In this document: positions 4,160 through 63,540 of the stretch, one piece after another
Numbering within the stretch: position 1 is the stretch's first letter
How the letters are laid out: the number at the start of each line of letters is the position of its first letter
Assembly: GCA_030429585.1 (NCBI GenBank)
Contig: JAUIEU010000001.1
Location: 353,982-417,981 of the forward strand
Source of the DNA: a bacterium
GTDB lineage: Bacteria > Cyanobacteriota > Vampirovibrionia > Vampirovibrionales > Vampirovibrionaceae
Reading direction: 5' to 3'
DNA length: 64,000 nucleotides
Notes under the pieces: generated by a model
Told to the model about the DNA's origin: nothing
Database searches by the model: none
What the model saw: only the letters and a program-made list of their open reading frames with translations
Position numbers and translations under genes: made by a program

Positions 4160-4190
4160 CTTGCTTGTAAGGCAACGTTGAGTGGGCTAT

Positions 4191-4455: not shown

Positions 4456-4493
4456 ATTTTTATTGATAGACTTTTGCGGCGGCTAGAATTTTT

Positions 4494-5336: not shown

Positions 5337-5408
5337 TCTATAGTGTGTTTAACATAGCTGATATGAGTGGATAAAGAGCGAAATTGAAGTGATAAATTGC
5401 CACAATGC

Positions 5409-40907: not shown

Positions 40908-42407
40908 CTATTCGCGGAGGTTAGCCCGCGCCTCTTTGAGTACATCAGCAGCAATATCTCGCCCACCAATGCCAAAGGCAATGGCAGCAGCAACGCCCAC
41001 AGCACCTACCAAGGTGCCAAAGGCCAGGTTAATAATATCGTTGGCTAGGCCCATTTGTTGGATGCCCATTGCCGCAGAGATAATAATAATAGCGCTTTTG
41101 GCAAGTAAGGCCAGCAGTTGCCCGTTCTGTACGTTGGATTGCCGGATCATACGGGCTGTAAAGTTAGCCAAGAATAGGCCAACAGCCAGTACCAGTAAGC
41201 CCATTAAAATGTGGCCTGCCACCACCAGCAAATCCTGCAAAATCAGGGTAATGTTGGTCAACTTTAGGATATTGAGCACCTCGATACCAATAAAGTATAG
41301 GATGGCAATTTTAACTAGGTGGCCCGCTAATTGGGTAGGCGCTACCACATTGGGGTTTTGGGCCGTATCGTCTCCTTGTAGGCCTAACCAGCTCCATAGG
41401 TTTTCAAAGCCAAAGGTTTCTAACATGCTAACCACAAGCTTGGCAATGCCGTTGGCCAGCACAATGCCCAAGCCAAACAGCACCATGGCGCCTAATAGTA
41501 GTGGGATGTATTCGAAGATAACCGTTAGCATGGCTTTGGCTGGCTCGGCAATGGCAGCAATGGCCAGGGTATCCAAGGCAGAGATGATAACGGGGATAAG
41601 GATAATAAAGTACACCAACTGGCCAGCAATTTGGCTAGCGGTGTGGTTTTTAAAGATGTGGCCAATACCCACCTTGTTGGCAAAGGTATCTAAGCCTAAG
41701 GCTTGCAGTAGGCTGCTGGTTAAACGCTTAACCACGTTGCTAACAAACCAACCAATGGCAAAAATAAGGGCCGCCGATAGAATGTTAGGCAGGTAACTGA
41801 GTACTTCGTTCATCATGCCCATCACAGGGACAAGCATGCCGTGGAGTTCAAAGGCCGCTAAAATGCTGGGGATGAAGAGTAAGAAGATGAACCAGTAGGA
41901 AACATCGCCAATACTTTTGCTTAGCCCAATAGGGGCTGTGTCATCGCCCGGCATATGCTGGGTCATTTTTTCATCTAAGGTGGTTAGGCTTAGTAGTTTA
42001 ACAATTAGGCTACGCACGACGGTGGCCAGTATCCAGGCAAGGGCAATGAGTAAGCCGCCACCAAGTAAGCTGGGCATGTAGCTAAACACCTTGTTAAGCA
42101 AGGTGTTTAAGGGTTGGGTAACAATAGAAAGCCCCAATGTTTGGAACACCCCAACCAGTACAATGAGCATAAGCAGGTAGTACAGCAGGGTGGCAATTTT
42201 CTTTTCTGCCGGTACCAAAAAGGTGGCTTGGTTCCCAAGTAAGTCTGTGAGCATTCGGTTTAGCGGGGTTTTGGCAATAATGCTGCCAATAATCATGCTA
42301 ATAACCAGTGCTAGCATCCAGCCAACAATTAAAAACGCCCCTGCACCGAGCAAACTCGGCATATATTGGCTAACGGCGGTTACCATTTCGTTTATTGCGG
42401 GATTCAT
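40908..42407 (-). CDS. polytopic membrane protein built from four 'conserved TM helix' repeats (PF05552-like, as in the N-terminal part of MscK/YbiO-type channels) without an MscS domain
   Basis: A four-fold repeat of Y[MLI]P.LLG.....[IL].GW......... (YMPSLLGAGAFLIVGW, YMPSLLGGGLLIALAW, YLPNILSAALIFAIGW, YIPLLLGAMVLFGLG). Confidence 0.7.
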   Translation of the reverse strand: MNPAINEMVTAVSQYMPSLLGAGAFLIVGWMLALVISMIIGSIIAKTPLNRMLTDLLGNQATFLVPAEKKIATLLYYLLMLIVLVGVFQTLGLSIVTQPLNTLLNKVFSYMPSLLGGGLLIALAWILATVVRSLIVKLLSLTTLDEKMTQHMPGDDTAPIGLSKSIGDVSYWFIFLLFIPSILAAFELHGMLVPVMGMMNEVLSYLPNILSAALIFAIGWFVSNVVKRLTSSLLQALGLDTFANKVGIGHIFKNHTASQIAGQLVYFIILIPVIISALDTLAIAAIAEPAKAMLTVIFEYIPLLLGAMVLFGLGIVLANGIAKLVVSMLETFGFENLWSWLGLQGDDTAQNPNVVAPTQLAGHLVKIAILYFIGIEVLNILKLTNITLILQDLLVVAGHILMGLLVLAVGLFLANFTARMIRQSNVQNGQLLALLAKSAIIIISAAMGIQQMGLANDIINLAFGTLVGAVGVAAAIAFGIGGRDIAADVLKEARANLRE

Positions 42408-42597: not shown

Positions 42598-45500
42598 TTA
42601 GTCTTCAGAAGATTCGTCTTCCACGGCCACGAAGCTAAAGCCACCATCGTCGCTCTCGCCGCCATCTTCCTCGATGAGACGTAAGTCGAAGGGTTGGCCA
42701 AAGTCGGTGCGCTCGTTAATAATTTGGGCTTCAACCGCGGTGGTTTCGCCATCGCCAATAACGCCGTCAACACTTTCAAAGGCTTTGTTGAACAGGTCAC
42801 GTAGGCGGTTGTAATCCACGGTTAGGTAAGGCAGGCCTTCTCGGTTTAAGGCATCGCCCAAGCTACCCAGCGCTAGGAAGTTACCGTTGAAGATAACGGC
42901 GCCAGGAGGGGTGCCAAGTACGTTGAGTGTGTTGCTTGGATTAACGACACCGTTAATAACAATACTAGTACCTGCCACTTGGCCATTCGCGCCAACGCTT
43001 AGGCTACCGTTACGAACCAGTACATCAAAGGGGTCGCCGATGGTACCAATAATACCGCCAGCCGTTAGGCGAGATGCACCATTGGCCACTAGGTTCACGG
43101 CACCACCATTACCATCTAGCAGGCTGCCAACCACATCAACAAACACTTGGTCGCCTTGCAGGCGTCCGGCCAGTACGGTACCGCTGCCTAGTGGGTCAAA
43201 CACACCCGGGGTATTGGTGCCGTTGCTAAAGCGTAGGTTACCGCCCGCTACCATAGAACGGATGATTACCGAGTTGGCATCGAAGATGCTGGTGGTACCG
43301 CCACTAGTGGTGGTTAAGAAGCTAGCGTTGGTATCTAGCGTAATGCCATCAGAGGCGTTCAGTACCATTTCTTCGCCGCTCACCAGGCCGGGGCCACTTA
43401 GGTTACCGTCTAGGGCGCTTAGGTTCACATTATCGTTGCCAAGCACATCAGCATTAACATCAATATCACCTTGGGCTGCCATGCTCACGCTGGAATCACC
43501 GGTAACCAGGTTGTTGATTTGAATGCTGCCGTCATCGTTGTTGATAGTAATGTCTGTGGCGGTTTGTTCGCCTTTAATATCAATATCACCGGCGCCAATA
43601 CTCGTTACTTGTAACGTGCCTTGGGCTTGGCCGCGGCGTAGTTTCACATCATCGGCTTCATCTACAAAAGCAGACCCGTTTTTAGCCGTAATGCGTAGTT
43701 TGTTAGCGTCTGTATTTAATGGGTCAGCCGCGCTACCAATATTACCATTTTTGGCTTTCAGTTTTACTAAATCGCCACCCACAGTGCCGGTGCCGCTAAT
43801 GCTGTTTTCAGCCGTCACGTCAGCCGTGTTGGTGGCGGTAACGGTGTTATTAACGATGATATCACCGCTTTTGTTATCGATAACGATATCAGTACCCGTT
43901 TGTTCGCCAGTAATTGTAATATCGCCAGCGTCTTTGCTGGTCACTTGCAAGTCATCTTGCGCATTAGACTTGCGCAGAATCACATCATCGGCTTCATTCA
44001 CAAAGGCAGAACCGTTGTTGGCGTTAATGCGCAGCTTATTGGCTTCCGTTTCAAACGGGGTGGCTTCGCTGCCCACATCGCCATTTTTGGCCTTTAGGCG
44101 GACTAAATCGCCGCGGGTTAAGCCAGTGCCGCTAATGTTATTCTCAGTGATTAGTCTCACGTCGCCTTCACCTGGGATAGCCTCGTGGCCTGGACGGCTA
44201 AATCCGCCGCCACCGTAGCTAAAGGTATCATCGGTTTCAACGCCCGCTTCGATAAGCCCATCGTTAATAATATCGTTGCCAGCGGTACCCGTCACATCAC
44301 CGGCAGCGCTTACACGGCCAGAGTCGTTCACGGTAATGTTTTTACCCGCAGTTAGTGTAATATCGCCGTGGGTGTCATCAATCAGTACTTTAGTAGTACG
44401 GCTAGGTTTAATAACGTCGCCGGATGAGGCCGAAGGGGTTTCTACAATACCATTGATGGTAATGTTTTTGCCCGCCGTGGCATCAATGGAGTGGCCAGCA
44501 CGAACTTCGCCTTTAGAGGTAACTTTAATGTTTTTGCCAGCATCTAACGCTACTCGGCCTTCGCTAAGGGCATCGCTGCCACCACCGTAGCTAAAGATAC
44601 CATCGTCTTCGTAGCCTGCTTGAACCAGTCCTTTAACGGTAATGTTGTTACCCGCGTCGCCACGAACGCGACGACTGGCGATAACCTCGCCGTTTTTGCC
44701 GACGGTAATATCACCATCAATGGCATCCAAGGTAACGACACCGGAGCGATCGCGGGGGCTAACAGGGCCACGACGACCGGGGCCACCACGGCCCATGGTT
44801 GGGTCATACGCTTCAACAAGCCCGTCGATGGTTATGTCATTTTGAGCGGTGGCATCAACGCGGCTTCCGGCAATAGCAGCGCCAGATTCGCTAACGTTAA
44901 TGTCGTTGCCTGCATCCAGTTCAATATTGCCGCCGAATAAAAGGCCAGGTACGGGCGAACCACCTCTTGTGGCAGGTCTGCTAAACAATAGCGGTTGGCC
45001 AGCAATTACGGTGCCATCGATTTGAATATTGTTACCGGCGTTACCGCTAACTAGGTTTTGGCCAATCACAATGCCGCCGTCGCTCACCGTAATATCGCCA
45101 TTGGTGGCGGTTAGGTTAACCGAACCGGGCGCAACCGGTGGGGGAACAGCTGCTGCGGTACGAACCGCAACCCGTGGGGATAAGTTTAAGGCACTAACAA
45201 TGCCATCCACATTAATGTTATTAACGGCTGTACCGGTAATAGAATTACCCGCAAAGATGCCGCCAGTGGCACTTACGGTAACATCGTTACCTGCGTTCAG
45301 GTCAACATCGCCGCCTTCCAGGGTGAAGGGTATTGGGCCACCAAGGGTACGTAGGGGAATACCGCCACCACCGTAGCTAAAGATATCATCGGGATGAACG
45401 CCAGCTTCTACCAAGCCATTCACCGTAATGTTGTTACCTGCATCCACATCAACGGTGTTATCCGCCAGGATAAGGCCATCGACGCCAACCGTCACGTTAT

Positions 45501-48500
45501 TGACGGCATCCAGCTTAACGGTGCCCGTGTGTGGGCCGCTGCCGCTGTAATCAAAACGGAAGTCAGACAGGCCTGATTCAACAGCGCCGTTTACCGTAAT
45601 GTTATTGCCTGCTTTGGCATCTACCATTTTGGCACCATGGACAACACCATTGACGCCAATCGTAACGTTATTACCCGCATCTAGCGTCACCGTATCACCT
45701 TCTAGCGGTATCTTGGTGGTTTTAGTGACTTTACTAATATCGCCAGGGCCGTGGTGGGTATCTACCAAGCCATTAATTAGGATGTCATCGGCCGCAGTAA
45801 TGGTAACGTTGGTGCCTAAAATGTCGCCAGGAACGCCAATCGTCACATCATCGTTACTGTTAATGGTGACATCACCACCTGCTTCAATGGAGCCGTTGTT
45901 AATAATGTCTTGGCCTTCGGCAAAGGCGACAGGGCCAAATTGGTCAAGGGTCACGTTATTATCGGCATGGATATGACCACCAACCTGGTTGGTAATGTCT
46001 TCTTTAACGCGAATTACGATGTTATTACCATGGATATCACCACCGTTGGCGACACTACCATTCGTCGCTTCAATCTTGGCTTTTTTAGCGGCGTCAATAT
46101 CGCCTTGGTTAATAATGTTGCTGGTATCCGCCGTTAGGGTCACTTTGCCCTCTTCAGCTTCAATACTACCCGTTTCGGTATTAAAGATGGTACCGACACT
46201 TGCATTGATGGTTAGGTCTTCGCGCTTAGCAAATAAGCGGCCATCGTTACGAACACTCTTGGCATCAATATCCAGGTTGCGACGACCTTTAATAAAGGCA
46301 TCTACTTTATTTTCAACACGGTGTGCCGCATCAATATCAACATCACGGCCACGAATATCACCGCTGTTTTCCACGTCATCGCCAGCGTTTAAAACAACAT
46401 CTCTACTGGCAAACAGGGTACCGGCTGTCGTGTTAATAATGTCATCACCTTCTTGGAAGGTGCCTGAATCTCCAGCGTTGATAATCAGGTCGTTTGCAGA
46501 ACTCATGGCCCCGCTGTTGGTGACTGTGCTACCAAGGGCATCAATGGTGATATCGCCGGTGGTGCTGGTAATGCTGCCGGGTGCTGTGTTGGTCACATCA
46601 TCCATGGTGGTGATGGCTACGCTCGCCCCTTGAACAGAACCGGTATTATCAAAATCATCGCGCGAGGTAATGGTCACCGCGCCGCCAGCATCAATGCCGC
46701 CATTGTTAATTATATCAGCGCCTTCCAGGTGAACGGTGCTGTTACCACGTGAACGAAGCTCTACCGTATCAGTGGCTTCAATCGTACCGCCGGTGCTGTT
46801 TTCCACGTTGTCAAACGCTAACATGACTACTCGACTGCCGCTTAGCGAACCGCTGTTAATTGCGGTGGTGTCAGCCATCAGGCGAGTCATGCGATTCGCC
46901 TCTACCGTGCCAGTGTTCTCTACTTCGCCCATATCAGAGGTGAGTAGTACGTGGCGGCTAACGGATTCAATGGTACCGTCGTTTTTCAGGTTGCCAACGG
47001 TGTCAATGGTCACATCGTTGTTGGTGGCGGTAATGGCGCCATCGGTATCTACGGTGTTGGCGTCAATATCTACGCCTTGGTTACCAGTAATGGCGCTATC
47101 GGCTTCTGATGTGAACTTATCAGCTGCGGTAATTTTTACTGTGCCGCCTGTGCTGGTAACGCTACCGGTACCGTTATTGGCAACCGAATCACCGGCGTTT
47201 AGGGTGACATCGCCAGCAGCCGCAATGCTGCCGGTGTTGGTAATGTTATCGTTGGTGCCGGGAGTGGCCGAATCGCCACTATTAATAGCAACCTTGGCGG
47301 CAGAGCTAATACTACCGTTATTGGTAACGTTGCTTTGTTGGCTGCCTACAGCAGAGGTAATGGTTACATCGCCAGTGGTGGAGGTTAATGAGCCGTTGTT
47401 GGTAATATCATCATCGCTAGTAACAGCAACGGTTGTACCGCTCACTGTCGCATCGTTGGTAACGTTATCGACACTATGTAGGGTAACGCCACCACCCGAA
47501 GAGGTGATCATACCATCGGTGGCTAGTTCATCGGCGGCATTAACGTTGACGTATTCACTGCCCGCTATGGTCGGCGTATTGCCAGATCTATCGCGAATAT
47601 CAATGTTATCGCCAGCGGTAATATCCACTTTGTTACCGTTACCAATAGTGCTGTTGCCTTCAATAATAATGTCATCGCCAGCGTTCAGGTTTACGCGATT
47701 AGCGGCGGTTACGCTGGCATCCGTAATGGTGATATCACGGAAGTTCTCTGGGCTAGCAGCGTCACCCGTAATAAAATTAACATTGGCGGTACCGTGGACG
47801 CTACCCCCATCTACTTTAATATCATCGGCGGCAAAGGCATCGACGGTTTGAGCTTGAATGGTGCCCCCCGTGTTTTCAATATCATCGGCGGCCTGCATGT
47901 TTAGACGGGTGGCTGCTGTAATGGTGCCTCTGTTAATAATATCGTTACCTTCAATCTTGGCGCTGTAGTTCCATGGGGCGCCAGTTTTCAGGTGGATTTG
48001 GTCCACATCCGATAGAATTTGGCCAGTCGCATCGTTGGTGATTTTGCGGGCATCAATGGTTACTCGGCCGTTGTTAGCTTGGATGGTGCCTTTGTTTAGC
48101 ACGTTACCGTTCTGGTTGTTATCCGAATCCGCCGTAATGTTGAGCGCGCCATTGGTAGCCGTTACGGAAGCACCCGTATTGATTTCGGTTTCGCCAGTGG
48201 CGGTAAAGTCAACGGTTTCACCAGTAACAGATACGCCGTTGGATACATCCAAGTTGCCATTGTTGTTGGTAATAGCAACATTTTTAGCCGTGGTGTTGCC
48301 AGTGACGATAACTTCACCCGCGCCGGTACTGGCCAACGCCAGCATGTTGGCAACGTTACTGGCGCCCAGGTCGATGTTATCTAAATCACTTACAAACGCA
48401 CTGTCGCCAGCATTCAGGGTGACGGTATCCGCGTCAATCATCAGCGGGTTAGCTGCATCGGTGCCGATGTTGCCATCAGTCGCCGTTAGGTTAAGGGTTT

Positions 48501-50061
48501 GGGCTAAAAACTGACCACTACCATGTATCCTGCTTTTAGCAGACACATTAGCGGTCGTTAGTCCGGTGTTCCCGATTCTGGATATGCCTTGATTCCGAAC
48601 ACGGTTGTTCGTCGAGGTAACGTTTAAGGTATCAGTTGCATCAATGGTGCTGTTACCCACGTTTTGTACCGCTCTAACACCTGTAACATCAACGGTTTTA
48701 CCAAAAATATCACCACTGCGGTTGTTTAAAATACCGTTAGCGGAATCGAGGCTAATATTGCCGTTATTGGCGGTAATGTTGCCGCCATAGTTTAAAATCT
48801 GATTCGATGCTGAAGAGCCATCGGTGGTTTCGATGCTGATATTGCCGTTGGTACTGGTGATATCACCACCCGTTGGGCCGGTTAGGCCACCCAAGGCAAC
48901 ACGCTTGGCGGCAGAAATAGTAATATCACCATCTGCTGTAATAACACCCGGCAATACAACGCCTACATCCTGGTTTAAAATATCATCATTGGTATTGGTA
49001 ATATCAATGGTGCCGGTTGAGGCAATGGTGCCTTGGTTAATGGTTTCGCCGCCAGAGGCTTTTAGTACGATAGCCCCATCTACAGACGCCACAGTGGTGG
49101 CTTCGATACGGCCCTTGTTGTTAATGGCACGATCGTAGAGGGAGGAATCCAGATCAGCCTGCATTTTAATCATGTTGCCGGTAATGGTGCCGGCAGTGTT
49201 GTTAAAAATAGCATCCTGCAGCCCGCCTACTTTTTGAGATAGGGCTTCATCCACGGTGACATCGACGAGAACGCCGCCGCTGGTGGCTAGGGTGACTTTA
49301 TTGCCCACGGCCAGGTGGACATTTCCTGTGGTGCTTTGAATAGTGCCATTGTTGCCAATGCGACTGGCAAGTAATACGACATCGCCAGCAGTGGCTTTAA
49401 TGTGCCCTAGGTTATTAATGGCAGATGAAAGCCCACCATTACGGTCAAAGGTTAAGTTACCGGTACCGTTATAGGCCATAAATTGTGCATCGGTCATATT
49501 TAGAGGCAATGTACTGGCAGTTAGGCTACCAACATTTACTGCACTGCTAGCGCCAAATATAATGCCACCGGGGTTAACTAATAACACGTTGCCATTAGAG
49601 AATAAATTACCTAGAAAATTCGTTGGCCCACCACTAATTTTACCGAGGAAATACCCATTACCGCTGGTATGCCTAATTCTGATGGTTTGACCGGCCAACG
49701 TATTGAAGTCGGTGGTAGTGGCAACCATGTTACCAGCCCCGATAAACTTAGCTTTGTTAGCATCGGGGTTGGTCAGGGTACCACCTTGTACCGTTGTGTT
49801 GGCATTGGTGGGTATGGCCCACGCACCACCACTACTAAGCATCATCCCGCCGACAAGCCCAAGAGCAACTAGTCGTTGAGCAAGCCCGCTAAAACTACTC
49901 ACGCCCCATTGGCCGAGTAAACTAGCGACCAAGGTTTCTACATCCTTTTTACTGGTAGCCATGGTGCGGATACCGCTGCTACCAAAGACGACGTAGCGGT
50001 GTTTGTTGACGGCGGTACGAAGGGCTTGCGGTAGGTCGGCAATAAGGGATGCGAGACTCAT
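42598..50061 (-). CDS. giant TpsA exoprotein / filamentous-haemagglutinin-like adhesin (2487 aa)
   Basis: Extended signal peptide; TPS secretion domain (NGNVLLVNPGGIIFGASSAVNVGSLTASTLPL); about 2000 aa of degenerate G/N/T/D-rich beta-helical repeats; acidic C-terminus. It lies immediately downstream of the TpsB gene. Confidence 0.9.
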   Translation of the reverse strand: MSLASLIADLPQALRTAVNKHRYVVFGSSGIRTMATSKKDVETLVASLLGQWGVSSFSGLAQRLVALGLVGGMMLSSGGAWAIPTNANTTVQGGTLTNPDANKAKFIGAGNMVATTTDFNTLAGQTIRIRHTSGNGYFLGKISGGPTNFLGNLFSNGNVLLVNPGGIIFGASSAVNVGSLTASTLPLNMTDAQFMAYNGTGNLTFDRNGGLSSAINNLGHIKATAGDVVLLASRIGNNGTIQSTTGNVHLAVGNKVTLATSGGVLVDVTVDEALSQKVGGLQDAIFNNTAGTITGNMIKMQADLDSSLYDRAINNKGRIEATTVASVDGAIVLKASGGETINQGTIASTGTIDITNTNDDILNQDVGVVLPGVITADGDITISAAKRVALGGLTGPTGGDITSTNGNISIETTDGSSASNQILNYGGNITANNGNISLDSANGILNNRSGDIFGKTVDVTGVRAVQNVGNSTIDATDTLNVTSTNNRVRNQGISRIGNTGLTTANVSAKSRIHGSGQFLAQTLNLTATDGNIGTDAANPLMIDADTVTLNAGDSAFVSDLDNIDLGASNVANMLALASTGAGEVIVTGNTTAKNVAITNNNGNLDVSNGVSVTGETVDFTATGETEINTGASVTATNGALNITADSDNNQNGNVLNKGTIQANNGRVTIDARKITNDATGQILSDVDQIHLKTGAPWNYSAKIEGNDIINRGTITAATRLNMQAADDIENTGGTIQAQTVDAFAADDIKVDGGSVHGTANVNFITGDAASPENFRDITITDASVTAANRVNLNAGDDIIIEGNSTIGNGNKVDITAGDNIDIRDRSGNTPTIAGSEYVNVNAADELATDGMITSSGGGVTLHSVDNVTNDATVSGTTVAVTSDDDITNNGSLTSTTGDVTITSAVGSQQSNVTNNGSISSAAKVAINSGDSATPGTNDNITNTGSIAAAGDVTLNAGDSVANNGTGSVTSTGGTVKITAADKFTSEADSAITGNQGVDIDANTVDTDGAITATNNDVTIDTVGNLKNDGTIESVSRHVLLTSDMGEVENTGTVEANRMTRLMADTTAINSGSLSGSRVVMLAFDNVENSTGGTIEATDTVELRSRGNSTVHLEGADIINNGGIDAGGAVTITSRDDFDNTGSVQGASVAITTMDDVTNTAPGSITSTTGDITIDALGSTVTNSGAMSSANDLIINAGDSGTFQEGDDIINTTAGTLFASRDVVLNAGDDVENSGDIRGRDVDIDAAHRVENKVDAFIKGRRNLDIDAKSVRNDGRLFAKREDLTINASVGTIFNTETGSIEAEEGKVTLTADTSNIINQGDIDAAKKAKIEATNGSVANGGDIHGNNIVIRVKEDITNQVGGHIHADNNVTLDQFGPVAFAEGQDIINNGSIEAGGDVTINSNDDVTIGVPGDILGTNVTITAADDILINGLVDTHHGPGDISKVTKTTKIPLEGDTVTLDAGNNVTIGVNGVVHGAKMVDAKAGNNITVNGAVESGLSDFRFDYSGSGPHTGTVKLDAVNNVTVGVDGLILADNTVDVDAGNNITVNGLVEAGVHPDDIFSYGGGGIPLRTLGGPIPFTLEGGDVDLNAGNDVTVSATGGIFAGNSITGTAVNNINVDGIVSALNLSPRVAVRTAAAVPPPVAPGSVNLTATNGDITVSDGGIVIGQNLVSGNAGNNIQIDGTVIAGQPLLFSRPATRGGSPVPGLLFGGNIELDAGNDINVSESGAAIAGSRVDATAQNDITIDGLVEAYDPTMGRGGPGRRGPVSPRDRSGVVTLDAIDGDITVGKNGEVIASRRVRGDAGNNITVKGLVQAGYEDDGIFSYGGGSDALSEGRVALDAGKNIKVTSKGEVRAGHSIDATAGKNITINGIVETPSASSGDVIKPSRTTKVLIDDTHGDITLTAGKNITVNDSGRVSAAGDVTGTAGNDIINDGLIEAGVETDDTFSYGGGGFSRPGHEAIPGEGDVRLITENNISGTGLTRGDLVRLKAKNGDVGSEATPFETEANKLRINANNGSAFVNEADDVILRKSNAQDDLQVTSKDAGDITITGEQTGTDIVIDNKSGDIIVNNTVTATNTADVTAENSISGTGTVGGDLVKLKAKNGNIGSAADPLNTDANKLRITAKNGSAFVDEADDVKLRRGQAQGTLQVTSIGAGDIDIKGEQTATDITINNDDGSIQINNLVTGDSSVSMAAQGDIDVNADVLGNDNVNLSALDGNLSGPGLVSGEEMVLNASDGITLDTNASFLTTTSGGTTSIFDANSVIIRSMVAGGNLRFSNGTNTPGVFDPLGSGTVLAGRLQGDQVFVDVVGSLLDGNGGAVNLVANGASRLTAGGIIGTIGDPFDVLVRNGSLSVGANGQVAGTSIVINGVVNPSNTLNVLGTPPGAVIFNGNFLALGSLGDALNREGLPYLTVDYNRLRDLFNKAFESVDGVIGDGETTAVEAQIINERTDFGQPFDLRLIEEDGGESDDGGFSFVAVEDESSED

Positions 50062-50212
50062 GAAGGGGTTTCCTTAAGAAAGTGCTATATAAGTGTGAAA
50101 TGGATAGGGTGACTGGCGCCAGTGTTACAAAATGTAAAGGCGGGGTTTCTCCCAAAAAGTTCGATGTGTGGCCATCATTATGGCGGGCTGTCTATAAACT
50201 AACACTAGTTGG

Positions 50213-52045
50213 TTAGAACAATTGCGTTTCTAGGCCAAAGTGTAAACGTGGATTGGCTTGGCGGTTTTTAGCCGGGTTGGAAAAGGCGGTAGGCTGCCGT
50301 AGCAGCGGGATGCCAAGATCTACCCGAGCGGTAAGTAACTTGGTAAGGCGGGCCCGTAAGCCAATGCCCATACCCCAGGCCACTTCGTCTTTTTGCTCCC
50401 CAATAATAGTACGGTGGGAGTATATCGCGCCGGCATCCATAAACGTTACAAGTTGGATATTATCGCGGAAGGAATAGCCGGTACCGGGGATATGCCACGA
50501 GCGAGGTAACACGAAGAAGGGCACATGCCATTCGCCGCTAACCATTAGGCCTTGGTCGCCAATTAGCTCGCCTTCGGTGTAGCCACGCACGGTAAAGGCA
50601 CCACCGAGTTGGAATTGCTCAATAGGGGGCAGTCTGTCTGGGGTGGCTTGGCCCATGGCCCGGAAGACACCAGTGGTGCCAAAGGGCATTTTTTGAACCC
50701 GTGTAGCGGCACCGGTGTAGCGCACAAATTGGCTACCGGCGCGGGCACGGCTAAGGGCAACATCGCCCGGCTCGGGGGTGCTATTGCGCCCACCTAGCCA
50801 GTCAAAGCCAAAGGCTACTTCGTTATTCCAGTAGGTACGGCCTAAACGGTCACTTTCCTCGTAGTTTAGGGCTGCCCGTAAGGTGCGTACCCGATCCACA
50901 AACTTAATGCCCCCGTTGGCGCCGTTGGTATTAACGTTTTTAAAATCCATCCCTAAATCTACCGACAATAGGTGATGGTCCGTATTAATCAGCTCTTGGC
51001 TGATATAGGGGGAGTAGATGTTCACGTCGCCCTTAATGTTTAAGGCAGCGATGCCATCTTCGCCAAGGCGTATGCGGCTGTGGGCGTAATCCATGTTTAG
51101 CTTGGTGCCCCACGGGCCAACAGGCACTTTGTATTGGGTAACGGTACTAAAGCTGCGGCGGCTAAAGCCCACCGTATTACTAATGGTATCGCCAAGGCCA
51201 AGCAGGTTGTTGTGGGTAACGGTGGCGCCTAAGCGTTTTTTACCAATTTGGTAGCGGCCCAAGTTATCCCAAAATAGGCTGGCATGGTAAGGGTGGTTTT
51301 CATACGTTGGGCGCAGCTCAATATCGGTTTCATCTGGGTTTTGGCCAGCTTGTAGCACGGCAGCCACGTTAAGGTCTGGGTTAGTGTTAATGCGGCGTAG
51401 CTGACGACGAAGGTTGGCATTGTTTAACACACCATGGCCCACACGGAAGCGAGGCTCGACGCTGCGATCGCGGAAGTGACGCCTTTCCATAAACTCAACA
51501 TCGCCAACGGTACCTTCTACCCCTTGTAGGGTAACGGTTCTATCTGCAATTTTTTGTGGCGGAATATACACACGGCTGGTAACAAAGCCTTTATCCCGAA
51601 TTCTATCGGTGAGGGCATCGGCCAGTTCTTGTAAGTCTAAAAAGTTAAGCAATCCTTGGGCGCGGTAGGGGGCTACTAAGGATTCTATTTCGTCTTCATC
51701 CAGCACTTTTAGGTCGGCAACAATAATCTCGTCTACCGGGAATTTTCGGCTTAGGCTGGGGTCTTGGGGTGGGGGCGCCTGCTCGTCAATAATTTCAGGT
51801 TCTGGGGGGGCCTCTGCATCAGGGGCTGTTTTCGTGGCTGTTGGGTTTTTTTGGAAATGTTGCTGAATGGCCCCAGCGTTTGAGCTGGGAGATGTTTGGT
51901 TAAGCCCTTGGGCATGGCTAACTAACGGTAACCACATGGAAAGCGCTACGGTGGTAGCCATAAGGTAGGTAGTGTATCGGGTTAAGTTGCGTGTCACAGT
52001 GTGGGTGCCCTTAAAAGAGATGGAAAAAGTGTTTAAATTATACAA
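50213..52045 (-). CDS. TpsB (ShlB/FhaC/HecB family) two-partner-secretion outer-membrane translocator
   Basis: 610 aa with a signal peptide, POTRA-like region, C-terminal beta-barrel ending in ...HFGLETQLF (C-terminal Phe), and position directly upstream of tpsA. Confidence 0.9.
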   Translation of the reverse strand: MYNLNTFSISFKGTHTVTRNLTRYTTYLMATTVALSMWLPLVSHAQGLNQTSPSSNAGAIQQHFQKNPTATKTAPDAEAPPEPEIIDEQAPPPQDPSLSRKFPVDEIIVADLKVLDEDEIESLVAPYRAQGLLNFLDLQELADALTDRIRDKGFVTSRVYIPPQKIADRTVTLQGVEGTVGDVEFMERRHFRDRSVEPRFRVGHGVLNNANLRRQLRRINTNPDLNVAAVLQAGQNPDETDIELRPTYENHPYHASLFWDNLGRYQIGKKRLGATVTHNNLLGLGDTISNTVGFSRRSFSTVTQYKVPVGPWGTKLNMDYAHSRIRLGEDGIAALNIKGDVNIYSPYISQELINTDHHLLSVDLGMDFKNVNTNGANGGIKFVDRVRTLRAALNYEESDRLGRTYWNNEVAFGFDWLGGRNSTPEPGDVALSRARAGSQFVRYTGAATRVQKMPFGTTGVFRAMGQATPDRLPPIEQFQLGGAFTVRGYTEGELIGDQGLMVSGEWHVPFFVLPRSWHIPGTGYSFRDNIQLVTFMDAGAIYSHRTIIGEQKDEVAWGMGIGLRARLTKLLTARVDLGIPLLRQPTAFSNPAKNRQANPRLHFGLETQLF

Positions 52046-57158: not shown

Positions 57159-57266
57159 GGTAGGCTAAGTAAGGGGGAAGCACGCTGTATATCAAAGGTC
57201 TATCGCTTTTAGGCGGCAAATACTATCGGTTGGTAATATAACAAATTGTTAAAATAATGTCACAAA

Positions 57267-57463: not shown

Positions 57464-59344
57464 ATGGGATGGTCCGTAAATAATGCAAAACATGCCGCTA
57501 CTAACCAGGATTTAAGTGGCAAAAGTATTAAAGGTGATCAAAAGAAACGATATAACACCTTTTTAGGGCGTCATGAGATTGACAACTCTGACCTTACGAT
57601 TAACCAACGCGGTAAAGGTAACCAGATAAAACTTAACGAAAGTGATACCAACAATATCACCGCAAAACAGGTATCAACTTCTGCGTATGGCCGTAACATT
57701 TTTGATGTTAATGGCGACGATAACACTATTGACTTAACTCACAAAGGTGGCCGTTCTAGAGTTCGCACTACCGGTGATGGTACCCATTTAGACCTTGATT
57801 CAACAGAAGCCAAAAATACAACGAATGTCTTTAAAGGGAATGACTTTTTATCATCTTTCTTAAGCCTATCCGAAACCGGCCCCAACAACTTACTGGTTCA
57901 AGGTGATGCCTTTAACATTGGCAACATTACCGGTGGCGAAGATGTGGACCAGTTCATCTTTGATGGTAACGGCAAGATTGATTCTATTGAAACCCACGAA
58001 GGTAACGATGAAGTAACCTTTACCGGCGATGGACAAACCACTGCCGATGTAGACCTGGGCAAAGGCGATGACGTTGTTCGGGCCAACGGCCTAAAAGGTA
58101 AAGTAGAAGGTGGCGCCGGTACCGATACCGCTCGTTTCCGTACTACCAAAGGTAACAACAAAGTACAAATCAGTAATGTTGAAAACATCGAAATTGACGG
58201 TGTTGACCTAGGTGCCAATTTTGACTTGGCCACCGCCACGAAAGCAGACTTGCCCAGCGGCATGAGTTTTGAAACCGATTCCGATGGTAACCGCGCCATT
58301 AAGATTGGTGACAGCACCTATAACTTAGATGATACTGATTCAAACATTACGATTGGTGGCAAAACCCAATTGGCAAGCGAGTGGTTTACCCAGTTTGGCA
58401 GTACTGCGGCTCCTGTAACCACCGACACCATTGATGGTACGGTTGGTGATGATACCCTGGATGCTCGTAACGGTGACTTTACCGTAAATGCCGATCATGG
58501 TGATGACACCATCTTCGTTGATGGCGACTCTAGCGGTATTGTTCATGGCGGACGCGGTAACGATACCCTGACGTCTGAAGTTAAGTTAGGAGACTACGAC
58601 AACATTGTGTACGACGAGACCGATGATAAGTTCACCCTAACCAAAGATGGTAACAAACTGGTGGTGTCTGGCGATGTTGAAAACTTTGATTTTGACGGCC
58701 AAGCGTTAACCAAGCAAGAGCTAGAAGACCACGCCAAAAACCTGAACATTTTAAATAGCCTAGCCTTAGTAGAAGGTAACGCCCACGACGAAACCATTAC
58801 CAAAAACGGCACCGACTTAATGGGCAAACTGATTGACGGTAAAGACGGCAACGACACCTTAAAAACCGATGTTAAGTTAGTGGATTTAGCTAACATTACA
58901 GAAGTTGATATTAACGGTGTTAAAGGCTTCGAGTTAACAGACGCGAATGGCGATATCTCTCGTGTTGTTAACATCGAAAACTTTGACTTCGATGGCCAAG
59001 TGGTTAGTGCAGCAGACCTAATTAATGAATTCAAAAACCCCACCCCCATTCTAACGGCTGTTGATGGTGATGCCGGTAATAATACATTTGGAAATGGAGC
59101 TGGCAACGGCAACTATAGAGGCAGTAACTTCTTCGGAAACTTGTACGATGGTAAAGCGGGTTCTGATAGCCTGTGGACTGACCACCGTGTAGCTGACCTG
59201 ACATTCTCGTTAGTTGATATTAACGGTACTGAAGGAATTGAAATTGCTGATGCGAATGGTAATATTTCCCGAGTTCTCAATATGGAACACTTTAACTTCG
59301 GTGGTGTATACCAATCATATGCTCAACTTAAAGCCCGTGTTTAA
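57464..59344 (+). CDS. RTX-like Asp/Gly/Asn-rich repeat protein (candidate type I secretion substrate)
   Basis: AAGGAG SD 8 nt upstream. No N-terminal signal peptide. It has GGxGxDxUx-type nonapeptides (HGGRGNDTL, GGAGTDTAR, GKDGNDTLK) and three ~65-aa C-terminal tandem modules (..DG.xGNDTL.TDVKL.DL ... NxENFDFDGQ..). Confidence 0.7.
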   Translation: MGWSVNNAKHAATNQDLSGKSIKGDQKKRYNTFLGRHEIDNSDLTINQRGKGNQIKLNESDTNNITAKQVSTSAYGRNIFDVNGDDNTIDLTHKGGRSRVRTTGDGTHLDLDSTEAKNTTNVFKGNDFLSSFLSLSETGPNNLLVQGDAFNIGNITGGEDVDQFIFDGNGKIDSIETHEGNDEVTFTGDGQTTADVDLGKGDDVVRANGLKGKVEGGAGTDTARFRTTKGNNKVQISNVENIEIDGVDLGANFDLATATKADLPSGMSFETDSDGNRAIKIGDSTYNLDDTDSNITIGGKTQLASEWFTQFGSTAAPVTTDTIDGTVGDDTLDARNGDFTVNADHGDDTIFVDGDSSGIVHGGRGNDTLTSEVKLGDYDNIVYDETDDKFTLTKDGNKLVVSGDVENFDFDGQALTKQELEDHAKNLNILNSLALVEGNAHDETITKNGTDLMGKLIDGKDGNDTLKTDVKLVDLANITEVDINGVKGFELTDANGDISRVVNIENFDFDGQVVSAADLINEFKNPTPILTAVDGDAGNNTFGNGAGNGNYRGSNFFGNLYDGKAGSDSLWTDHRVADLTFSLVDINGTEGIEIADANGNISRVLNMEHFNFGGVYQSYAQLKARV

Positions 59345-59387: not shown

Positions 59388-60797
59388 CTAACTCAACAAT
59401 GCACCGCTTGTGGCCTTTGGCTGGCAGGCGGTGTTTTTGTTAGCCACCCCAGTGCGGCTACAGTGGGCACTAATATCATCAGCCAAAGCCCATAACACTT
59501 GGCGGGCAATCAATTGTTTATCCGCCTTGGGTAGGTGGCGTAGCAGGTCGGGCTCGCTGGCCAGCAGTAAGGTTACTTCGTTTACATTGGTGCCAAAGCC
59601 AATATCGTTGCGGCTTATATCGTTTAAGCATAGGGCGTGTAGGTTTTTCCGAAGCATTTTTTGCCGGGCCAGGTCAATAATCGCATCCGTCTCGTGGTCA
59701 TCCGGGGCCATGGCAGGGCTGTTTCCGGGCGGCTCACTGGCCGTTTCCGCCGCAAAACCTAACGTGTACAGGTGGGGGTAGGCCTGGATAAGGCCTGCAA
59801 TAACATCTACGTTGGGGGTAAGGGCTAGGGTGACGGGTTTGGCGGTGCGTTTTAGTTTGGTTTGGCTGGCATTATCTACCGTAAAATCGCTAACGGCAGC
59901 GGCCATTACCACGCCATGGTGGCCAGGGGCCAGGTTGTGCAGGGTATCGTTAAGCTGGGCGCTGGTTTGCACGCGGGTAATGGCAAAGGTGTCGTCGTTG
60001 GTAGGGGTATTGGCGAGTAGGGCATCGCTAACGGTTTGGGTGGCTACCACATGCACACTGGCGCCCAGTTGCCACAGTTGGTGGGCAAAGGCTAGGCCCA
60101 TTTTACCGCTGCTGCGGTTGGTAATATGGCGCACGGGGTCCATGGGTTCTGCGGTGCCGCCGGCAGTAACCATAAACCGGTATCCGGTTAGCTTTTGGGG
60201 CTGCAAGCTTTTGGCTAGCCCATGCAGCAGGTGATGAAGGGGAGCCAGGTGGCCGGTGCCTTCTTCGCCGCAGGCCAGTACCCCGTGGGTGGGGGGAATA
60301 ATCGTAACATTGGGCCAAGATTGCAGTATATCAATATTCGCCTGAACGGCAGGGTGGGCCCACATGCGGGGGTTCATGGCCGGGGCAATAATTAGGGGTT
60401 TGTTTGCCCAGCACAGGGCGGTGGTGCTTAGCATATCGCTAGCATGGCCATGGGCCAGCTTGGCCAAGGTGTTGGCGGTGGCTGGCATAATGATTAAGGC
60501 ATCGGCCTGTTGGGCCAAGGCAATATGCCAGGGGGTGCCATCGGCATCCACGCCCAGTTCGTCCGTTAGTACTGGCTGCCGGGTCAGGGATTCAAAGGTT
60601 AGGGTGCCGATAAAGGCGTCGGTGCTGGGGGTGGTAATAACCTGCACGCTGCGGGCCCCTTGGCGCTGGCATTCTCGGATAAGCTCGCAGGCCTTGTAGG
60701 CGGCAATGCCACCGCACACGCCTATAACCAAGCGTTTGCCATCCAGTGGCTTACCGGTAATGGCCGCTAGTGTGGTGGTGGGTGCTGGGGTTGCCAT
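59388..60797 (-). CDS. coaBC: bifunctional phosphopantothenoylcysteine decarboxylase / phosphopantothenate-cysteine ligase
   Basis: N-terminal flavoprotein domain (LVIGVCGGIAAYKACELIR) and C-terminal CoaB ligase domain. Confidence 0.9.
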   Translation of the reverse strand: MATPAPTTTLAAITGKPLDGKRLVIGVCGGIAAYKACELIRECQRQGARSVQVITTPSTDAFIGTLTFESLTRQPVLTDELGVDADGTPWHIALAQQADALIIMPATANTLAKLAHGHASDMLSTTALCWANKPLIIAPAMNPRMWAHPAVQANIDILQSWPNVTIIPPTHGVLACGEEGTGHLAPLHHLLHGLAKSLQPQKLTGYRFMVTAGGTAEPMDPVRHITNRSSGKMGLAFAHQLWQLGASVHVVATQTVSDALLANTPTNDDTFAITRVQTSAQLNDTLHNLAPGHHGVVMAAAVSDFTVDNASQTKLKRTAKPVTLALTPNVDVIAGLIQAYPHLYTLGFAAETASEPPGNSPAMAPDDHETDAIIDLARQKMLRKNLHALCLNDISRNDIGFGTNVNEVTLLLASEPDLLRHLPKADKQLIARQVLWALADDISAHCSRTGVANKNTACQPKATSGALLS

Positions 60798-61012
60798 AAT
60801 AAATACCCTAGTTGTTGTGGGCGTAGAATAGTGGCCTTATTGTACCCCAGCCAGTGGTGGGCTTCATCTGTATGGCGTGGCAAGGGTAAAAATAGCGTCA
60901 GGAGAGGGTTTCACCCCGCTTGAATTACCCGAATGATAACAGAGTGTAACATTTTGTGTGTTAAGGACACTAAGTAGTTGACCCTTTACCCACAACAGCG
61001 TATATTACTACC

Positions 61013-61098
61013 CAAGGTTAGTAATACTAACCTCTTTAAATTATTCCCCTCACTCCCAACCTAATTTTTTATAAGCTCCGTTCTACGGGGCTTTTTTC
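61013..61098 (+). ncRNA. candidate small RNA, unit 1 (~86 nt)
   Basis: TTGACC-N17-TATATT promoter (60978..61006). 5' hairpin GGTTAGTAATACTAACC. C-rich single-stranded CCCCUCACUCCCAACCUAAU. Intrinsic terminator AGCTCCG-ttcta-CGGGGCT+T6 (61074..61098). Confidence 0.45.
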
Positions 61099-61209
61099 TT
61101 ATGTGGGGGGATTCAGTCCGAAGGGCACTATATTAAAATCCTGTTACAAAATTAAGGTGTTTTTAATACACTAACTTGACTCTCTCGGTTTCCGCCTTAT
61201 ACTACTACC

Positions 61210-61408
61210 TGTAGTTAGTAATACACGCTATGCGGTGTTGCTAGTTCAAAGACACACCTGTTACTTATTGCCTTAACTCATTTCAACTTATTTTCAAGTT
61301 ATATTCTCCCTCTTCAACCCCCTTACTCTCTTCTTAATTATTATACTCACTCCCAACCTAATACGATTCTAACCCCTGAGCGAAATTATGTTTCAGGGGC
61401 TTTTTTTT
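61210..61408 (+). ncRNA. candidate small RNA, unit 2 (~200 nt), paralog of unit 1
   Basis: TTGACT-N16-TATACT promoter (61176..61203). It shares ACTACC..GTTAGTAATAC at the 5' end and CACTCCCAACCTAAT before the terminator CCCCTG...CAGGGG+T8 (61373..61408), with a long CU-rich interior. Confidence 0.45.
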
Positions 61409-61569
61409 GCCTGAGTTTACCTTTTGGGTGGTTTGGGTATAGGGGCTATAAACGTGTGTATACTGCGATAATTAACAATTACTATAATTGTAATAAACAA
61501 AGGTTTTCTATGTGGTGTACAAAAGTTAGCCAGTTGGCCACTTAAATTTGGGAGCAAATAATCGATAAA

Positions 61570-61684
61570 CAATATATACACACTCACACACACGACTTTA
61601 AGATCACCCACTCCCTAAGAACACACGTACCCACGTTACAACAGTTCTCCCCAACAATGTCCCAGCGTTGTTGGGGTTTTTTTA
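61570..61684 (+). ncRNA. candidate small RNA, unit 3 (weaker)
   Basis: Possible TTGGCC-N17-AATAAT promoter (61534..61562). CACACTCACACACAC and CACCCACTCCCTAAG motifs. Strong terminator CCCCAACAA-(loop)-TTGTTGGGG+T7 (61649..61684). Confidence 0.3.
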
Positions 61685-62019
61685 TGCTTAAAAACCCCTG
61701 ATGTAGTGTTATAACCGGCTTTAACCCTTGTTTTTTCTATCTGGTAAGGAATATATGGCTACTTGGCCACTACACATTGGGTAACTATTAACGATAACTA
61801 AAGTATATCAAGCACCGCGACTTGAAGCCCTCTTCCCACTGCCCCGCCAAGCTGATGAGCTTGCCTACGCAGAACACCAACACCTTCCCTCTCTCTCCCT
61901 CAAGACGTCCACCCTACACAACAAATGGAGGAATAAGCGCCATCTGCCTTAGTTAGTCTATAACCGTAAGGTTTTTGTCTTTAGTAAGCCCCTATAGTGT
62001 TTCGCTATAGGGGCTTGCG

Positions 62020-63342
62020 CTATGTTGGCGTGGTTATGGGGCGCTGGTAGCGCAATTGGCCATTAATCCACACATGCTGGGCCTGGGTGGTGGGGGCCAG
62101 CCACTGGGCCAGGGCCTGGTAAGGGGTGTGGTGTCGGGGGCCAACAGTAGCATTGGTATGCCATGCCACCACATCGGCGGCCTTGCCGGGGGCTAGGGTG
62201 CCACAGCGGGTTTGCCACCCCAGTTGCTTGGCGCCGTGTTGGGTAAGCATGGCCAATAGGGTGGGTAGGGGCCACCCGTGGTGTTGGTGGCACCATCGGC
62301 CTTCGGCGCGTACATCCAGGGTATGGTTGCTTAGGGTGCTGTCCGTCCCTAAGGATAAACAGTCGGTGGGGGCGTTAGCGGCCAGGGTATGGCCGTGGAG
62401 CCACAGATTGCTACGGGGGCAGTGGCTTACCCCAATATGTGGGTGTTGGCTCATGTGGTGCCAGTCATCAGGGGTTAAGGTAACGCCGTGGGCCAGGATG
62501 ATAGGCCGTGTGGTATCGGTAAAACAGCCGTGTTGGCGTAGGTATTGGTAGGGCGAAGTAGCCTGCGGGTTGGCGGCTAGGGGTTGTGGGCCGATAGGGC
62601 TACCAAAAAAGCGTTTGTGGACATCACCTATGGGGGTGGGTTGGCCTAGCAGCCAGTGGGTTTCATCGGTGCTTTCGCCAGCATGGGTATGTAATAGGCC
62701 GGGTTGGCAAGTATCCACCATGGCCTGCCACGAGGTGGGCGACACGTTATACGGCGCATGGGGGGATAACCCGGCGGTTAATAAGGGGCTGGCTTTGCTG
62801 GCAAAATGCTGCCAATATCGTACTGGGTGGGCTGTCGGGGTGGGGGTATCCCATAAGGGCCAAAACCATTCCATGCTTACGGCCCCGCGCAAGCCACAGG
62901 CGGCTAGGGCGTGAAAACTCTCGCCAAAGGTGCTGATATCGTTGACGCCGGTGGTACCGCAGGCCAGTAAGGCCTGGGTGGCTGCCATACAGTGTTCTAA
63001 AGGGCTGTGGGGGCTGCTTTGCCGGTGGGTAATAACCTTGTTTAGCCAGTCGCCCATACTTTCATCAGCGTTAATGGGGATAGGCGTTGGGATGTGGGGC
63101 AGGGTTAGCTCTAGGTGGGTGTGGGTGTTAATCAGCCCTGGGGTTATAAACGTGGTGCCGTGGTTGGGTAGGGTGCCTAGTAACTCGCTGTGGAGGCTAG
63201 GGGCCAGCTCGTTAAGGCTACCCACGGCGGTAATAGTCTGGCCTTGCAATGCCACAAACCCGTGGGCAATAGGCGCTGCCCCGACTGGGAACACCCAATG
63301 GGCGGCGTGATAGTGTGGGGGCGAGGGTGAAGGAGGTGTCAT
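62020..63342 (-). CDS. amidohydrolase-superfamily deaminase-like enzyme (MTA/SAH or aminofutalosine deaminase-like), GC-rich and His/Pro/Trp-rich
   Basis: HxH metal site (GLINTHTHLELT) and a second HTHAGES motif. The likely start is the ATG at 63342; the ORF track extends to 63480. About 62% GC against about 50% locally. Confidence 0.7.
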   Translation of the reverse strand: MTPPSPSPPHYHAAHWVFPVGAAPIAHGFVALQGQTITAVGSLNELAPSLHSELLGTLPNHGTTFITPGLINTHTHLELTLPHIPTPIPINADESMGDWLNKVITHRQSSPHSPLEHCMAATQALLACGTTGVNDISTFGESFHALAACGLRGAVSMEWFWPLWDTPTPTAHPVRYWQHFASKASPLLTAGLSPHAPYNVSPTSWQAMVDTCQPGLLHTHAGESTDETHWLLGQPTPIGDVHKRFFGSPIGPQPLAANPQATSPYQYLRQHGCFTDTTRPIILAHGVTLTPDDWHHMSQHPHIGVSHCPRSNLWLHGHTLAANAPTDCLSLGTDSTLSNHTLDVRAEGRWCHQHHGWPLPTLLAMLTQHGAKQLGWQTRCGTLAPGKAADVVAWHTNATVGPRHHTPYQALAQWLAPTTQAQHVWINGQLRYQRPITTPT

Positions 63343-63540
63343 AAAAATGGTTGGTGGTGGAAGATGAGGAGGACGGAAACCGAATTTTGCTTTACAATAC
63401 CGTAAATGCCCGCCGTTTTGATGATGAACCGCTGGGCGGTGCCTGTAGATTTTAAAGGATAGCCCTTCGTTATGGCCCATACTGCCTCTGACGCTAAAAA
63501 AGACGGTTGCAAAGTAGCGGCAACCCTTGGTGATAAGTGG

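Follow-up and report, generated by a model that had tools for sequence, protein, structure and literature searches.

Two tandem candidate sRNA genes with a conserved C-rich core next to coaBC, a previously uncatalogued family of predicted sibling regulators

Sibling small regulatory RNAs (sRNAs) that are encoded in tandem and carry CU-rich anti-Shine-Dalgarno motifs are well described; LhrC1-5 (PMC4132741) and AbcR1/2 (PMC4152367) are examples, and the subject has been reviewed (PMC4211561). In Listeria monocytogenes, LhrC1-5 are multicopy siblings, four of them in tandem, with their own promoters and terminators. The promoters need an upstream element around -55 to -75 and respond to LisR, and redundant unpaired CU-rich (UCCC) motifs pair with the Shine-Dalgarno (SD) region of the targets (PMC4132741). 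RsaE/RoxS and other Firmicute UCCC sRNAs have C-rich unpaired motifs that are thought to pair with G-rich SD sequences (PMC4132741). AbcR1 and AbcR2 of the Rhizobiales lie in tandem in one intergenic region and have single-stranded anti-SD modules (PMC4152367; PMC3712013), and the tandem siblings NgncR_162/163 of Neisseria (NmsRs) act post-transcriptionally on many mRNAs (PMC9973317; PMC5362039). In this paper we analyze a 64-kb stretch of bacterial DNA, referred to as the window throughout, in which the gap upstream of coaBC (60798-62019) holds candidate genes of this kind. A preliminary description of the window had placed three related sRNA-like units with a common C-rich motif in this gap. 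We find that two of them, units 1 and 2, are paralogous and belong to a family that is conserved at coaBC in related genomes. We assign a rough probability of 0.6 to the reading that they are sibling trans-encoded regulatory RNA genes, which would act through pairing of a C-rich seed with G-rich ribosome-binding regions.

The features of units 1 and 2 are as follows; the start sites of both RNAs are predicted.

60934-60964, + strand: upstream box region of unit 1 (TGATAAC, TGTAAC and TGTTAA, spaced by about 10-14 nt and placed about 60-75 nt upstream of the -10 element), a candidate transcription-factor site
60967-61006, + strand: core promoter of unit 1, with a ACACTAAG box, a -35 element TTGACC (60978-60983), a 17-nt spacer and a -10 element TATATT (61001-61006)
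61013-61098, + strand: unit 1 sRNA, about 86 nt
61015-61033, + strand: 5' hairpin of unit 1, GGTTAG paired with the downstream CTAACC
61039-61045, + strand: AAUUAUU box of unit 1
61048-61065, + strand: unpaired core of unit 1, CCUCACUCCCAACCUAAU
61073-61093 (stem) with a U run to 61098, + strand: terminator of unit 1
61142-61203, + strand: promoter of unit 2, with an inverted box TGTTAC (61142-61147), ACACTAAC (61168-61175), a -35 element TTGACT (61176-61181), a 16-nt spacer and a -10 element TATACT (61198-61203)
61210-61408, + strand: unit 2 sRNA, about 200 nt
61214-61224, + strand: 5' block of unit 2, GUUAGUAAUAC
61336-61342, + strand: AAUUAUU box of unit 2
61348-61362, + strand: core of unit 2, CACUCCCAACCUAAU
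61373-61399 (stem) with U8 at 61401-61408, + strand: terminator of unit 2, whose loop exceeds the limit of the terminator scan, yet which folds

Judged from these features and from their conservation, units 1 and 2 are real, each with its own predicted sigma70-type promoter, a 5' block, a CU-rich body and a predicted intrinsic terminator. The promoter of unit 1 matches the consensus at 10 of 12 positions. Its RNA folds with a minimum free energy of -20.4 kcal/mol (z = -4.93), its core has a predicted probability of being unpaired of 1.00, and its body contains 0% G. The body of unit 2 is long and CU-rich, with 4% G. That the two units are related is apparent from the 15-mer CACTCCCAACCTAAT, which does occur in both as described before, at 61051 and 61348, and nowhere else in the 64 kb. 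In addition, they have 27-nt blocks in common that are 89% and 81% identical, and their local alignment score of 43 (19.5 +/- 2.7 in shuffles) was not reached by any of 500 shuffled sequences. The common 5' block was also found again, except that the spacer reported as N3 is in fact N4 (ACTACC-CAAG/TGTA-GTTAGTAATAC). Likewise, unit 1 does form a hairpin, but ACTACC is not one of its arms, which are GGTTAG and CTAACC. An inverted repeat, ACTA(A/C)C-N4-GTTAGT, stands straight after the -10 element and lies over the predicted start site (61007-61033 and 61204-61224 in the window; same position in all relatives). It is retained in unit 2 of the window and of its closest relative, where the downstream hairpin arm is gone, and could be an operator or part of the RNA 5' end.

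Contigs encoding CoaBC homologues were compared, which covered 5-13 kb per relative and 64 kb of the window genome. CoaBC of the window itself was found on one Logan contig and one NCBI contig. The relatives and the identity of their CoaBC to that of the window are:

L082, GCA_030430475.1: 79%
L083 and L084, Logan: 54%
L085, GCA_029866025.1: 48%
L087, GCA_046328025.1: 48%
L128, L129 and L130, Logan: 48%

Units with the same layout, upstream of coaBC and directed away from it, are present at all of these loci, and nothing in the relatives, which keep the arrangement of promoter, C-rich motif and terminator, reads as a decayed gene. This conservation supports the earlier proposal that units 1 and 2 are stand-alone sRNA genes. 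Eight genomes, the window included, contain the family. Seven of them have two tandem units, with orthologues of the second one in L082, L083, L085, L087, L128 and L130, while L129 has a single unit. No such unit was found in L086, whose CoaBC is 46% identical; the contig search with CoaBC also gave, among the matches listed, homologues of at most 40% identity. The gene on the far side differs among the genomes (amidohydrolase, purH side, pyridoxal-dependent decarboxylase and others), and coaBC is thus the constant neighbor. At 6001-6114 of L085, the 469-aa CoaBC gene call of GCA_029866025.1 (P0123) begins within the promoter of unit 1; the real start is probably that of the 431-aa version (P0005).

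Delimited by the conserved -10 and terminator strings, 15 units from the eight genomes were obtained, with lengths of 91-229 nt. They have in common a sigma70-type promoter, the 5' block GGUUAGUAAUAC, which is usually closed as a hairpin by ACUAACC, a CU-rich body with 0-15% G (17-24% in the spacers between units) and an intrinsic terminator, the sequence of which varies between genomes. In 13 of the 15 units neither the core ACTCCCAACC nor ACUCCCAACC varies; the latter is part of a longer stretch, (C)CUCACUCCCAACCUAA, which is near-invariant. The second units of L085 and L087 are diverged. Across the units the core is predicted to be unpaired, with probabilities of 0.65-1.00. Motifs can also be repeated inside one RNA: ACUCCCAACC is found twice in unit 1 of L085, CCUCACUCCC twice in unit 1 of L087, and CCUCAC three times in unit 2 of L082. 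The 5' hairpin is supported by compensatory changes, GGUUGGU/ACCAACC in L129 and GGUAAGU/GCUUACC in L085. In its alignment, 92.9% of the cells pair, and in four cells both partners have changed. The covariation score of 0.421 was reached by none of 500 shuffles (0.226), and slid controls have at most 0.151.

A covariance model (R1) was built from seven units. Its modeled structure is limited to the 5' hairpin because MAFFT failed to align the terminators structurally. Unit 1 of the window scores 83.6 bits with this model. Unit 2, which was outside the training set, scores 32.4 bits (E = 5e-4), in agreement with the paralogy seen in the alignment. The model recovers all core-bearing units that were not used for training, at 32-62 bits, so that the family copies in related genomes are retrieved in the kind of covariance-model search that had been proposed; the diverged second units are marginal (21.5 bits, E 0.21, in L087; 15.8 bits, E 4.8, in L085). 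No further match was found in 1.09 Mb, which includes the rest of the window, L086 and 80 distant coaBC loci.

Searches for catalogued relatives were negative. With Rfam 15 at gathering thresholds, the window contains one tRNA match only, and L082, L083, L085 and L087 contain no match. At E <= 10, there was no match in L087 and only noise in L130. The same relaxed setting gave a GcvB match on unit 1, which was rejected: it reaches 24.9 bits of the 42 needed, has 97 model positions deleted, and the weak alignment spans only hairpin and terminator. The two seed regions of GcvB, known as R1 and R2, are G/U-rich, whereas the body of unit 1 has no G at all. NsiR1 in the gap (about 15 bits versus 39) was also discarded as a hit driven by terminators. 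No match to plasmid and phage collections was obtained with blastn of the units, and the motif appeared in the searchable literature in unrelated primers only. The pattern AATTN{5,9}CACTCCCAACCTAA had 40 matches in JGI metagenomes, none of them with a promoter or terminator context; they score at most 16 bits with nhmmer, compared to 25-35 bits for true members, and look like chance hits. As far as these sequence searches go, units 1 and 2 are a previously uncatalogued family.

The promoters are conserved as well. In the unit promoters of five genomes (alignment A2), TTGAC and the -10 element align and hardly vary. In three relatives added later, the -35 element is TTGACC, TTGCGT, TTGCTT, TTGCAT or TTGCAG. 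ACAC(T/G)AAC is located directly upstream of the -35 element in the aligned promoters, and the unit 2 promoter of the window is near-identical in L082. Direct repeats of the type TGTAAC-N4-TGTAAA are present about 60-75 nt upstream of the -10 element in the unit 1 promoters of L083, L085, L087, L128 and L130; L128 and L130 have them in the promoter of unit 2 as well. Measured from the end of the -10 element, these repeats begin about 70 nt upstream. A single inverted TGTTAC is found in the unit 2 promoters of the window and of L082. With at most one substitution allowed, the double box has 13 matches in 144 kb, seven of which are in sRNA promoters, and about 2-3 would be expected by chance. 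Response-regulator-type activators typically use helically phased direct repeats placed like these, and a regulator of this type may control the units.

Boxes of this kind were also observed elsewhere in the window. On its other side, coaBC is flanked by a gene (57464-59344, 626 aa) for a D/G/N/T-rich protein with GDDTL/GNDTL repeats; this protein has no Pfam or NCBIfam match, and its only weak match in PDB is an antifreeze protein (3p4g). Upstream of this gene, at 57237-57253, there is a box TRTAAC-N4-TGTWAA resembling the sRNA boxes; this promoter region is conserved in front of the orthologues in L082, L083, L085 and L087. The box is followed by GCAATC, TGTTTTTATTAAT and CAGAGAG, with a distance of about 63-74 nt from box to -10. 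The leader of about 150-200 nt (up to 57463) closes with a conserved GAGAGAGAACAAGGAGC just before the ATG. Based on this resemblance, the gene and the sRNAs may be under common control. At 50123-50138, TGTTACAAAATGTAAA differs from the sRNA promoter box by one mismatch; it lies in the 151-nt gap between a putative TpsA exoprotein gene (42598-50061, - strand; 2487 aa, no Pfam match) and a TpsB/ShlB gene (50213-52045, - strand). An extra promoter at this position was rejected, as there is no promoter-like or terminator-like site around the box.

How might the siblings work? We propose that each sibling has a sigma70-type promoter of its own, which would direct transcription away from coaBC as far as the intrinsic terminator, and that a transcription factor probably controls this promoter by binding to the direct repeats of the TGTAAC type, located about 60-75 nt upstream of the -10 element. 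The RNA would consist of the 5' hairpin (GGUUAGU/ACUAACC), a CU-rich body, which should be unstructured because it is nearly G-free, and the U-tailed terminator. This body would expose the invariant single-stranded (C)CUCACUCCCAACCUAA, in many cases together with AAUUAUU boxes and additional copies of CUCAC/CUCCC. The complement of the seed, UUAGGUUGGGAGUGAGG, contains GGGAG and GGAG, and the C-rich seed would pair antisense with G-rich sequence at or near the ribosome-binding sites of several mRNAs, where it would block translation or trigger decay. Two siblings may provide redundancy or differential dosage. With its protective 5' hairpin, its conserved and accessible seed, its AU-rich stretch and its U-tailed terminator, the RNA has the anatomy of a trans-acting base-pairing sRNA, and we consider base-pairing the most likely mechanism, at odds somewhat better than even.

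Several observations weigh against this proposal. Transcripts and start sites are predicted from consensus and conservation, and no significant target was found among the 34 translation initiation regions of the window. The best site, at an MS-channel-like gene (40908-42407), has -22.7 kcal/mol and is equaled by shuffled seeds in 22 of 400 cases; it is best simply as the most G-rich region. The genes flanking the related loci, coaBC included, have no consistent complementarity, 9-mer complements of the seed are at chance level, and the RTX-like neighbor gene is not among the high-ranking ones in full-length duplexes and does not stand out as an sRNA target. Finally, most of the 34 long open reading frames (ORFs) have no recognizable GGAG-type SD sequence in the 25 nt upstream of the start. 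General anti-SD action is thus not self-evident.

An alternative that deserves mention is that the units act not on mRNAs, but as decoys that titrate a protein, as CsrB/RsmZ or CrcZ do, with CUCAC, CUCCCAACC and AAUUAUU as binding sites for a CU-RNA-binding protein. Core motifs that are repeated within single RNAs (unit 1 of L085 and L087, unit 2 of L082) would suit such a function, as would the long, unstructured bodies, which vary between 91 and 229 nt in length around conserved short motifs. A stretch of 13-17 nt that is invariant across hosts with CoaBC only 48% identical would also fit a single fixed partner. The failure of the target searches to provide an mRNA target points in the same direction, but is weak support because only a small part of one genome was covered. 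Sponges of the CsrB/RsmZ type present multiple GGA motifs in loops, unlike the unit bodies, which have no GGA repeats and 0-15% G, and we know of no bacterial protein that binds such a CU motif. Moreover, unit 1 has one copy of the core, whereas decoys usually have many sites, and base-pairing siblings such as LhrC typically have redundant CU-rich motifs as well (PMC4132741). On balance, we regard decoys as unlikely. Slightly less likely still is the specific version in which they would serve a new CsrB- or CrcZ-like global regulator of a diderm lineage that recognizes CUCACUCCCAACCUAA, with expression from a TGTAAC-repeat regulon that perhaps includes secreted RTX-like and two-partner-secretion exoproteins.

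Alternatively, the conserved blocks might not function as RNA at all, but as DNA-level control elements of coaBC, such as operators of divergent promoters, palindromes or bidirectional terminators. The linkage to coaBC is constant in eight of eight genomes, the palindromes ACTAAC-N4-GTTAGT overlie the predicted start, and TGTAAC boxes lie between coaBC and unit 1. However, the second unit retains promoter, core and terminator although it is 200-350 nt farther from coaBC, and it is the G-free transcribed body rather than the promoter that is conserved most strongly. The compensatory changes of L129 (GGTTGGT/ACCAACC) and L085 (GGTAAGT/GCTTACC) retain the downstream RNA hairpin, not the DNA palindrome, and the terminators, diverse as they are in sequence, all form a hairpin whose U run is confined to the + strand. 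We therefore consider this explanation very improbable. A decayed protein-coding gene or small proteins would be still harder to reconcile with the data: apart from the unusual length of the 1.2-kb gap, nothing favors them, units 1-3 contain no + strand ORF of at least 30 aa in the ORF list, and the short conserved blocks alternate with stretches of variable length, with no reading frame. Start codons are few in the bodies because these are almost G-free. On the - strand, a 43-aa ORF (60864-60995) overlaps the unit 1 promoter. Another one (61417-61611) has a low-complexity translation, lies mostly in sequence that L082 does not have, and is not a credible gene.

The gap itself spans 1,222 nt (60798-62019), in the place that had been described, and is bordered by two genes on the strand opposite to that of the sRNA units:

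59388-60797, - strand: coaBC (Pfam Flavoprotein and DFP)
62020-63480, - strand: amidohydrolase gene

The G+C content is 55-63% in the coding regions near the locus and 35-41% in the gap. A consensus scan finds six promoter-like sites in the gap (2.2 +/- 1.3 in shuffles), and six terminator-like sites are present (1.7 +/- 1.3 in shuffles). The three + strand promoter-like sites of the preliminary description, at 60978, 61176 and 61534, were found again by the consensus scan. Its three terminators were detected too, those of units 1 and 3 by the hairpin/T-run scan and that of unit 2 by folding.

The third of these promoter-like sites belongs to the remaining unit:

61534-61684, + strand: unit 3, a candidate independent transcription unit

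The promoter (TTGGCC-N17-AATAAT) is weak, with 9 of 12 consensus positions, and the terminator is strong, with a 12-bp stem (61649-61676) and U7. The body (61569-61648) has 7% G and 35% C, and the whole unit folds with z = -2.85. Unit 3 had been presented as a carrier of a variant of the common motif and thus as a third family member, a claim that we do not uphold. Its alignment scores of 17 to unit 1 and 20 to unit 2 are equaled or exceeded in 349 and 164 of 500 shuffles, respectively, which is no better than chance, and it is reported neither by the nhmmer core profile nor by covariance model R1, even at E <= 10. The stretch that holds it is missing from the closest relative, L082, at a place where the window carries extra sequence; the gap of L083 stops after unit 2 and has no unit 3. 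A strongly diverged third copy would still explain the same strand, order and layout (promoter-like site, G-poor and C-rich body, strong terminator), the CACTCCC followed by TAAG, and the TGTAAT hexamer about 74 nt upstream of the -10 element, near the position of the family box. Against it stand the shuffle-level scores, the missing profile and model matches, the absence from L082 and L083 and the weak promoter, so that a single paralogous family of all three units appears doubtful. In our sequence comparison, unit 3 is a separate element restricted to the lineage of the window genome and no family member. It may be another C-rich sRNA of similar style, though no third copy, since its body is G-poor and C-rich like those of units 1 and 2 (7% versus 0-4% G).

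A fourth C-rich block is located at 61763-62016 on the + strand (16% G and 38% C at 61800-61950). It is preceded by TTGGCCACTACA...CGATAACTAAAGTAT, which is kept in L082 as far as the contig end. A perfect 12-bp hairpin (61986-62016) without a U run closes the block directly past the stop codon of the amidohydrolase gene. A CopA-like Rfam match at 61955-62022 is sub-threshold (28.8 bits versus 60) and, like that of NsiR1, is driven by terminators. Another sRNA is one possible reading of this block, the 3' end of the transcript of the amidohydrolase gene a second.

Genes in the window for LptF/G, a TolC-like protein, an ABC/HlyD pair of type I secretion and two-partner secretion identify the host as a diderm. 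Compared with ribosomal proteins in PDB, L13 of the relative L083 comes closest to entries for P. aeruginosa and E. coli ribosomes and S9 is ambiguous, which gives no more than a weak hint of affinity. Next to such LPS-export and TolC-like genes, a 440-aa protein (16837-18159) that joins S-layer-homology (SLH) domains to a weak TrbI-like region is unusual and may be a clue to the lineage. A second large gap, at 4160-5408, contains tRNA-Pro(CGG) at 4379-4455. The tRNA gene is preceded by about 2.5 tandem copies of a unit of about 84 nt, the end of which mimics the 5' part of the tRNA, and very AT-rich sequence containing fragmented ORFs comes after it. This gap looks like a decayed element integrated at the tRNA gene.

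If the units are expressed, they provide a comparatively validated sRNA family for a lineage that is known only from metagenome assemblies, and the seed, the promoter architecture, the structural model and the covariance model would then be an entry to post-transcriptional regulation in such organisms. Due to the invariance of the 17-nt seed even at 48% CoaBC identity, comparative target prediction should work well on whole genomes. The finding leaves the current understanding of sRNA action unchanged, as becomes clear when the units are compared with known systems.

In general layout, the units resemble Yfr1 of cyanobacteria, in which a conserved C-rich box stays unpaired between a 5' stem-loop and the stem-loop of the terminator. 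Of the 11 nt of the Yfr1 box, 9 are present as UCCUCACAC in the diverged second units of L085 and L087; the RNAs described here are longer and duplicated. The resemblance to Yfr1 suggested in the preliminary description is an analogy only, as the gap lacks the box ACTCCTCACAC (ACUCCUCACAC) within two mismatches, and there is no Yfr1 covariance-model match at E <= 10 in the window, L087 or L130. At two mismatches, the box has six matches window-wide, compared to 9.0 expected. The second resemblance suggested there, to RsaE/RoxS, is likewise no more than an analogy, with no Rfam model match even at E <= 10 (gap, L087, L130); RsaE/RoxS is usually a single gene with its C-rich motifs in hairpin loops, in contrast to the tandem units found here. 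OmrA/OmrB of enterobacteria are adjacent tandem genes with shared 5' and 3' ends and a divergent middle, under the control of the response regulator OmpR, which binds to direct repeats. Tandem siblings and direct repeats are thus common to both systems, though in our case the regulator is postulated from the TGTAAC repeats only. The seed of OmrA/B, which is not C-rich, lies at the very beginning of the RNA, and there is no sequence similarity. The Neisseria siblings NgncR_162/163 form three stem-loops, a different fold, and have no sequence or covariance-model similarity to the units. Like AbcR1 and AbcR2, units 1 and 2 are a tandem pair of related sRNAs within a single intergenic region. The architecture differs, with the modules M1 and M2 in AbcR1 and a linear CU-rich tract between 5' hairpin and terminator in the units, which have no Rfam match; in addition, no LysR-type regulator gene is nearby and the locus is tied to coaBC. 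With LhrC1-5, the units have in common that homologous sRNA genes with CU-rich unpaired motifs are arranged head to tail. There is no sequence or covariance-model similarity to LhrC, which has short loop motifs and a Firmicute host, whereas the units have a diderm host and a G-free body in which the seed, CUCACUCCCAACCUAA, is a single long stretch, invariant and unpaired. To call the arrangement not a textbook element was therefore an overstatement, since LhrC1-5, AbcR1/2 and the review literature (PMC4211561) precede it. The sRNA family is new, but tandem C-rich siblings are an already known kind of regulator.

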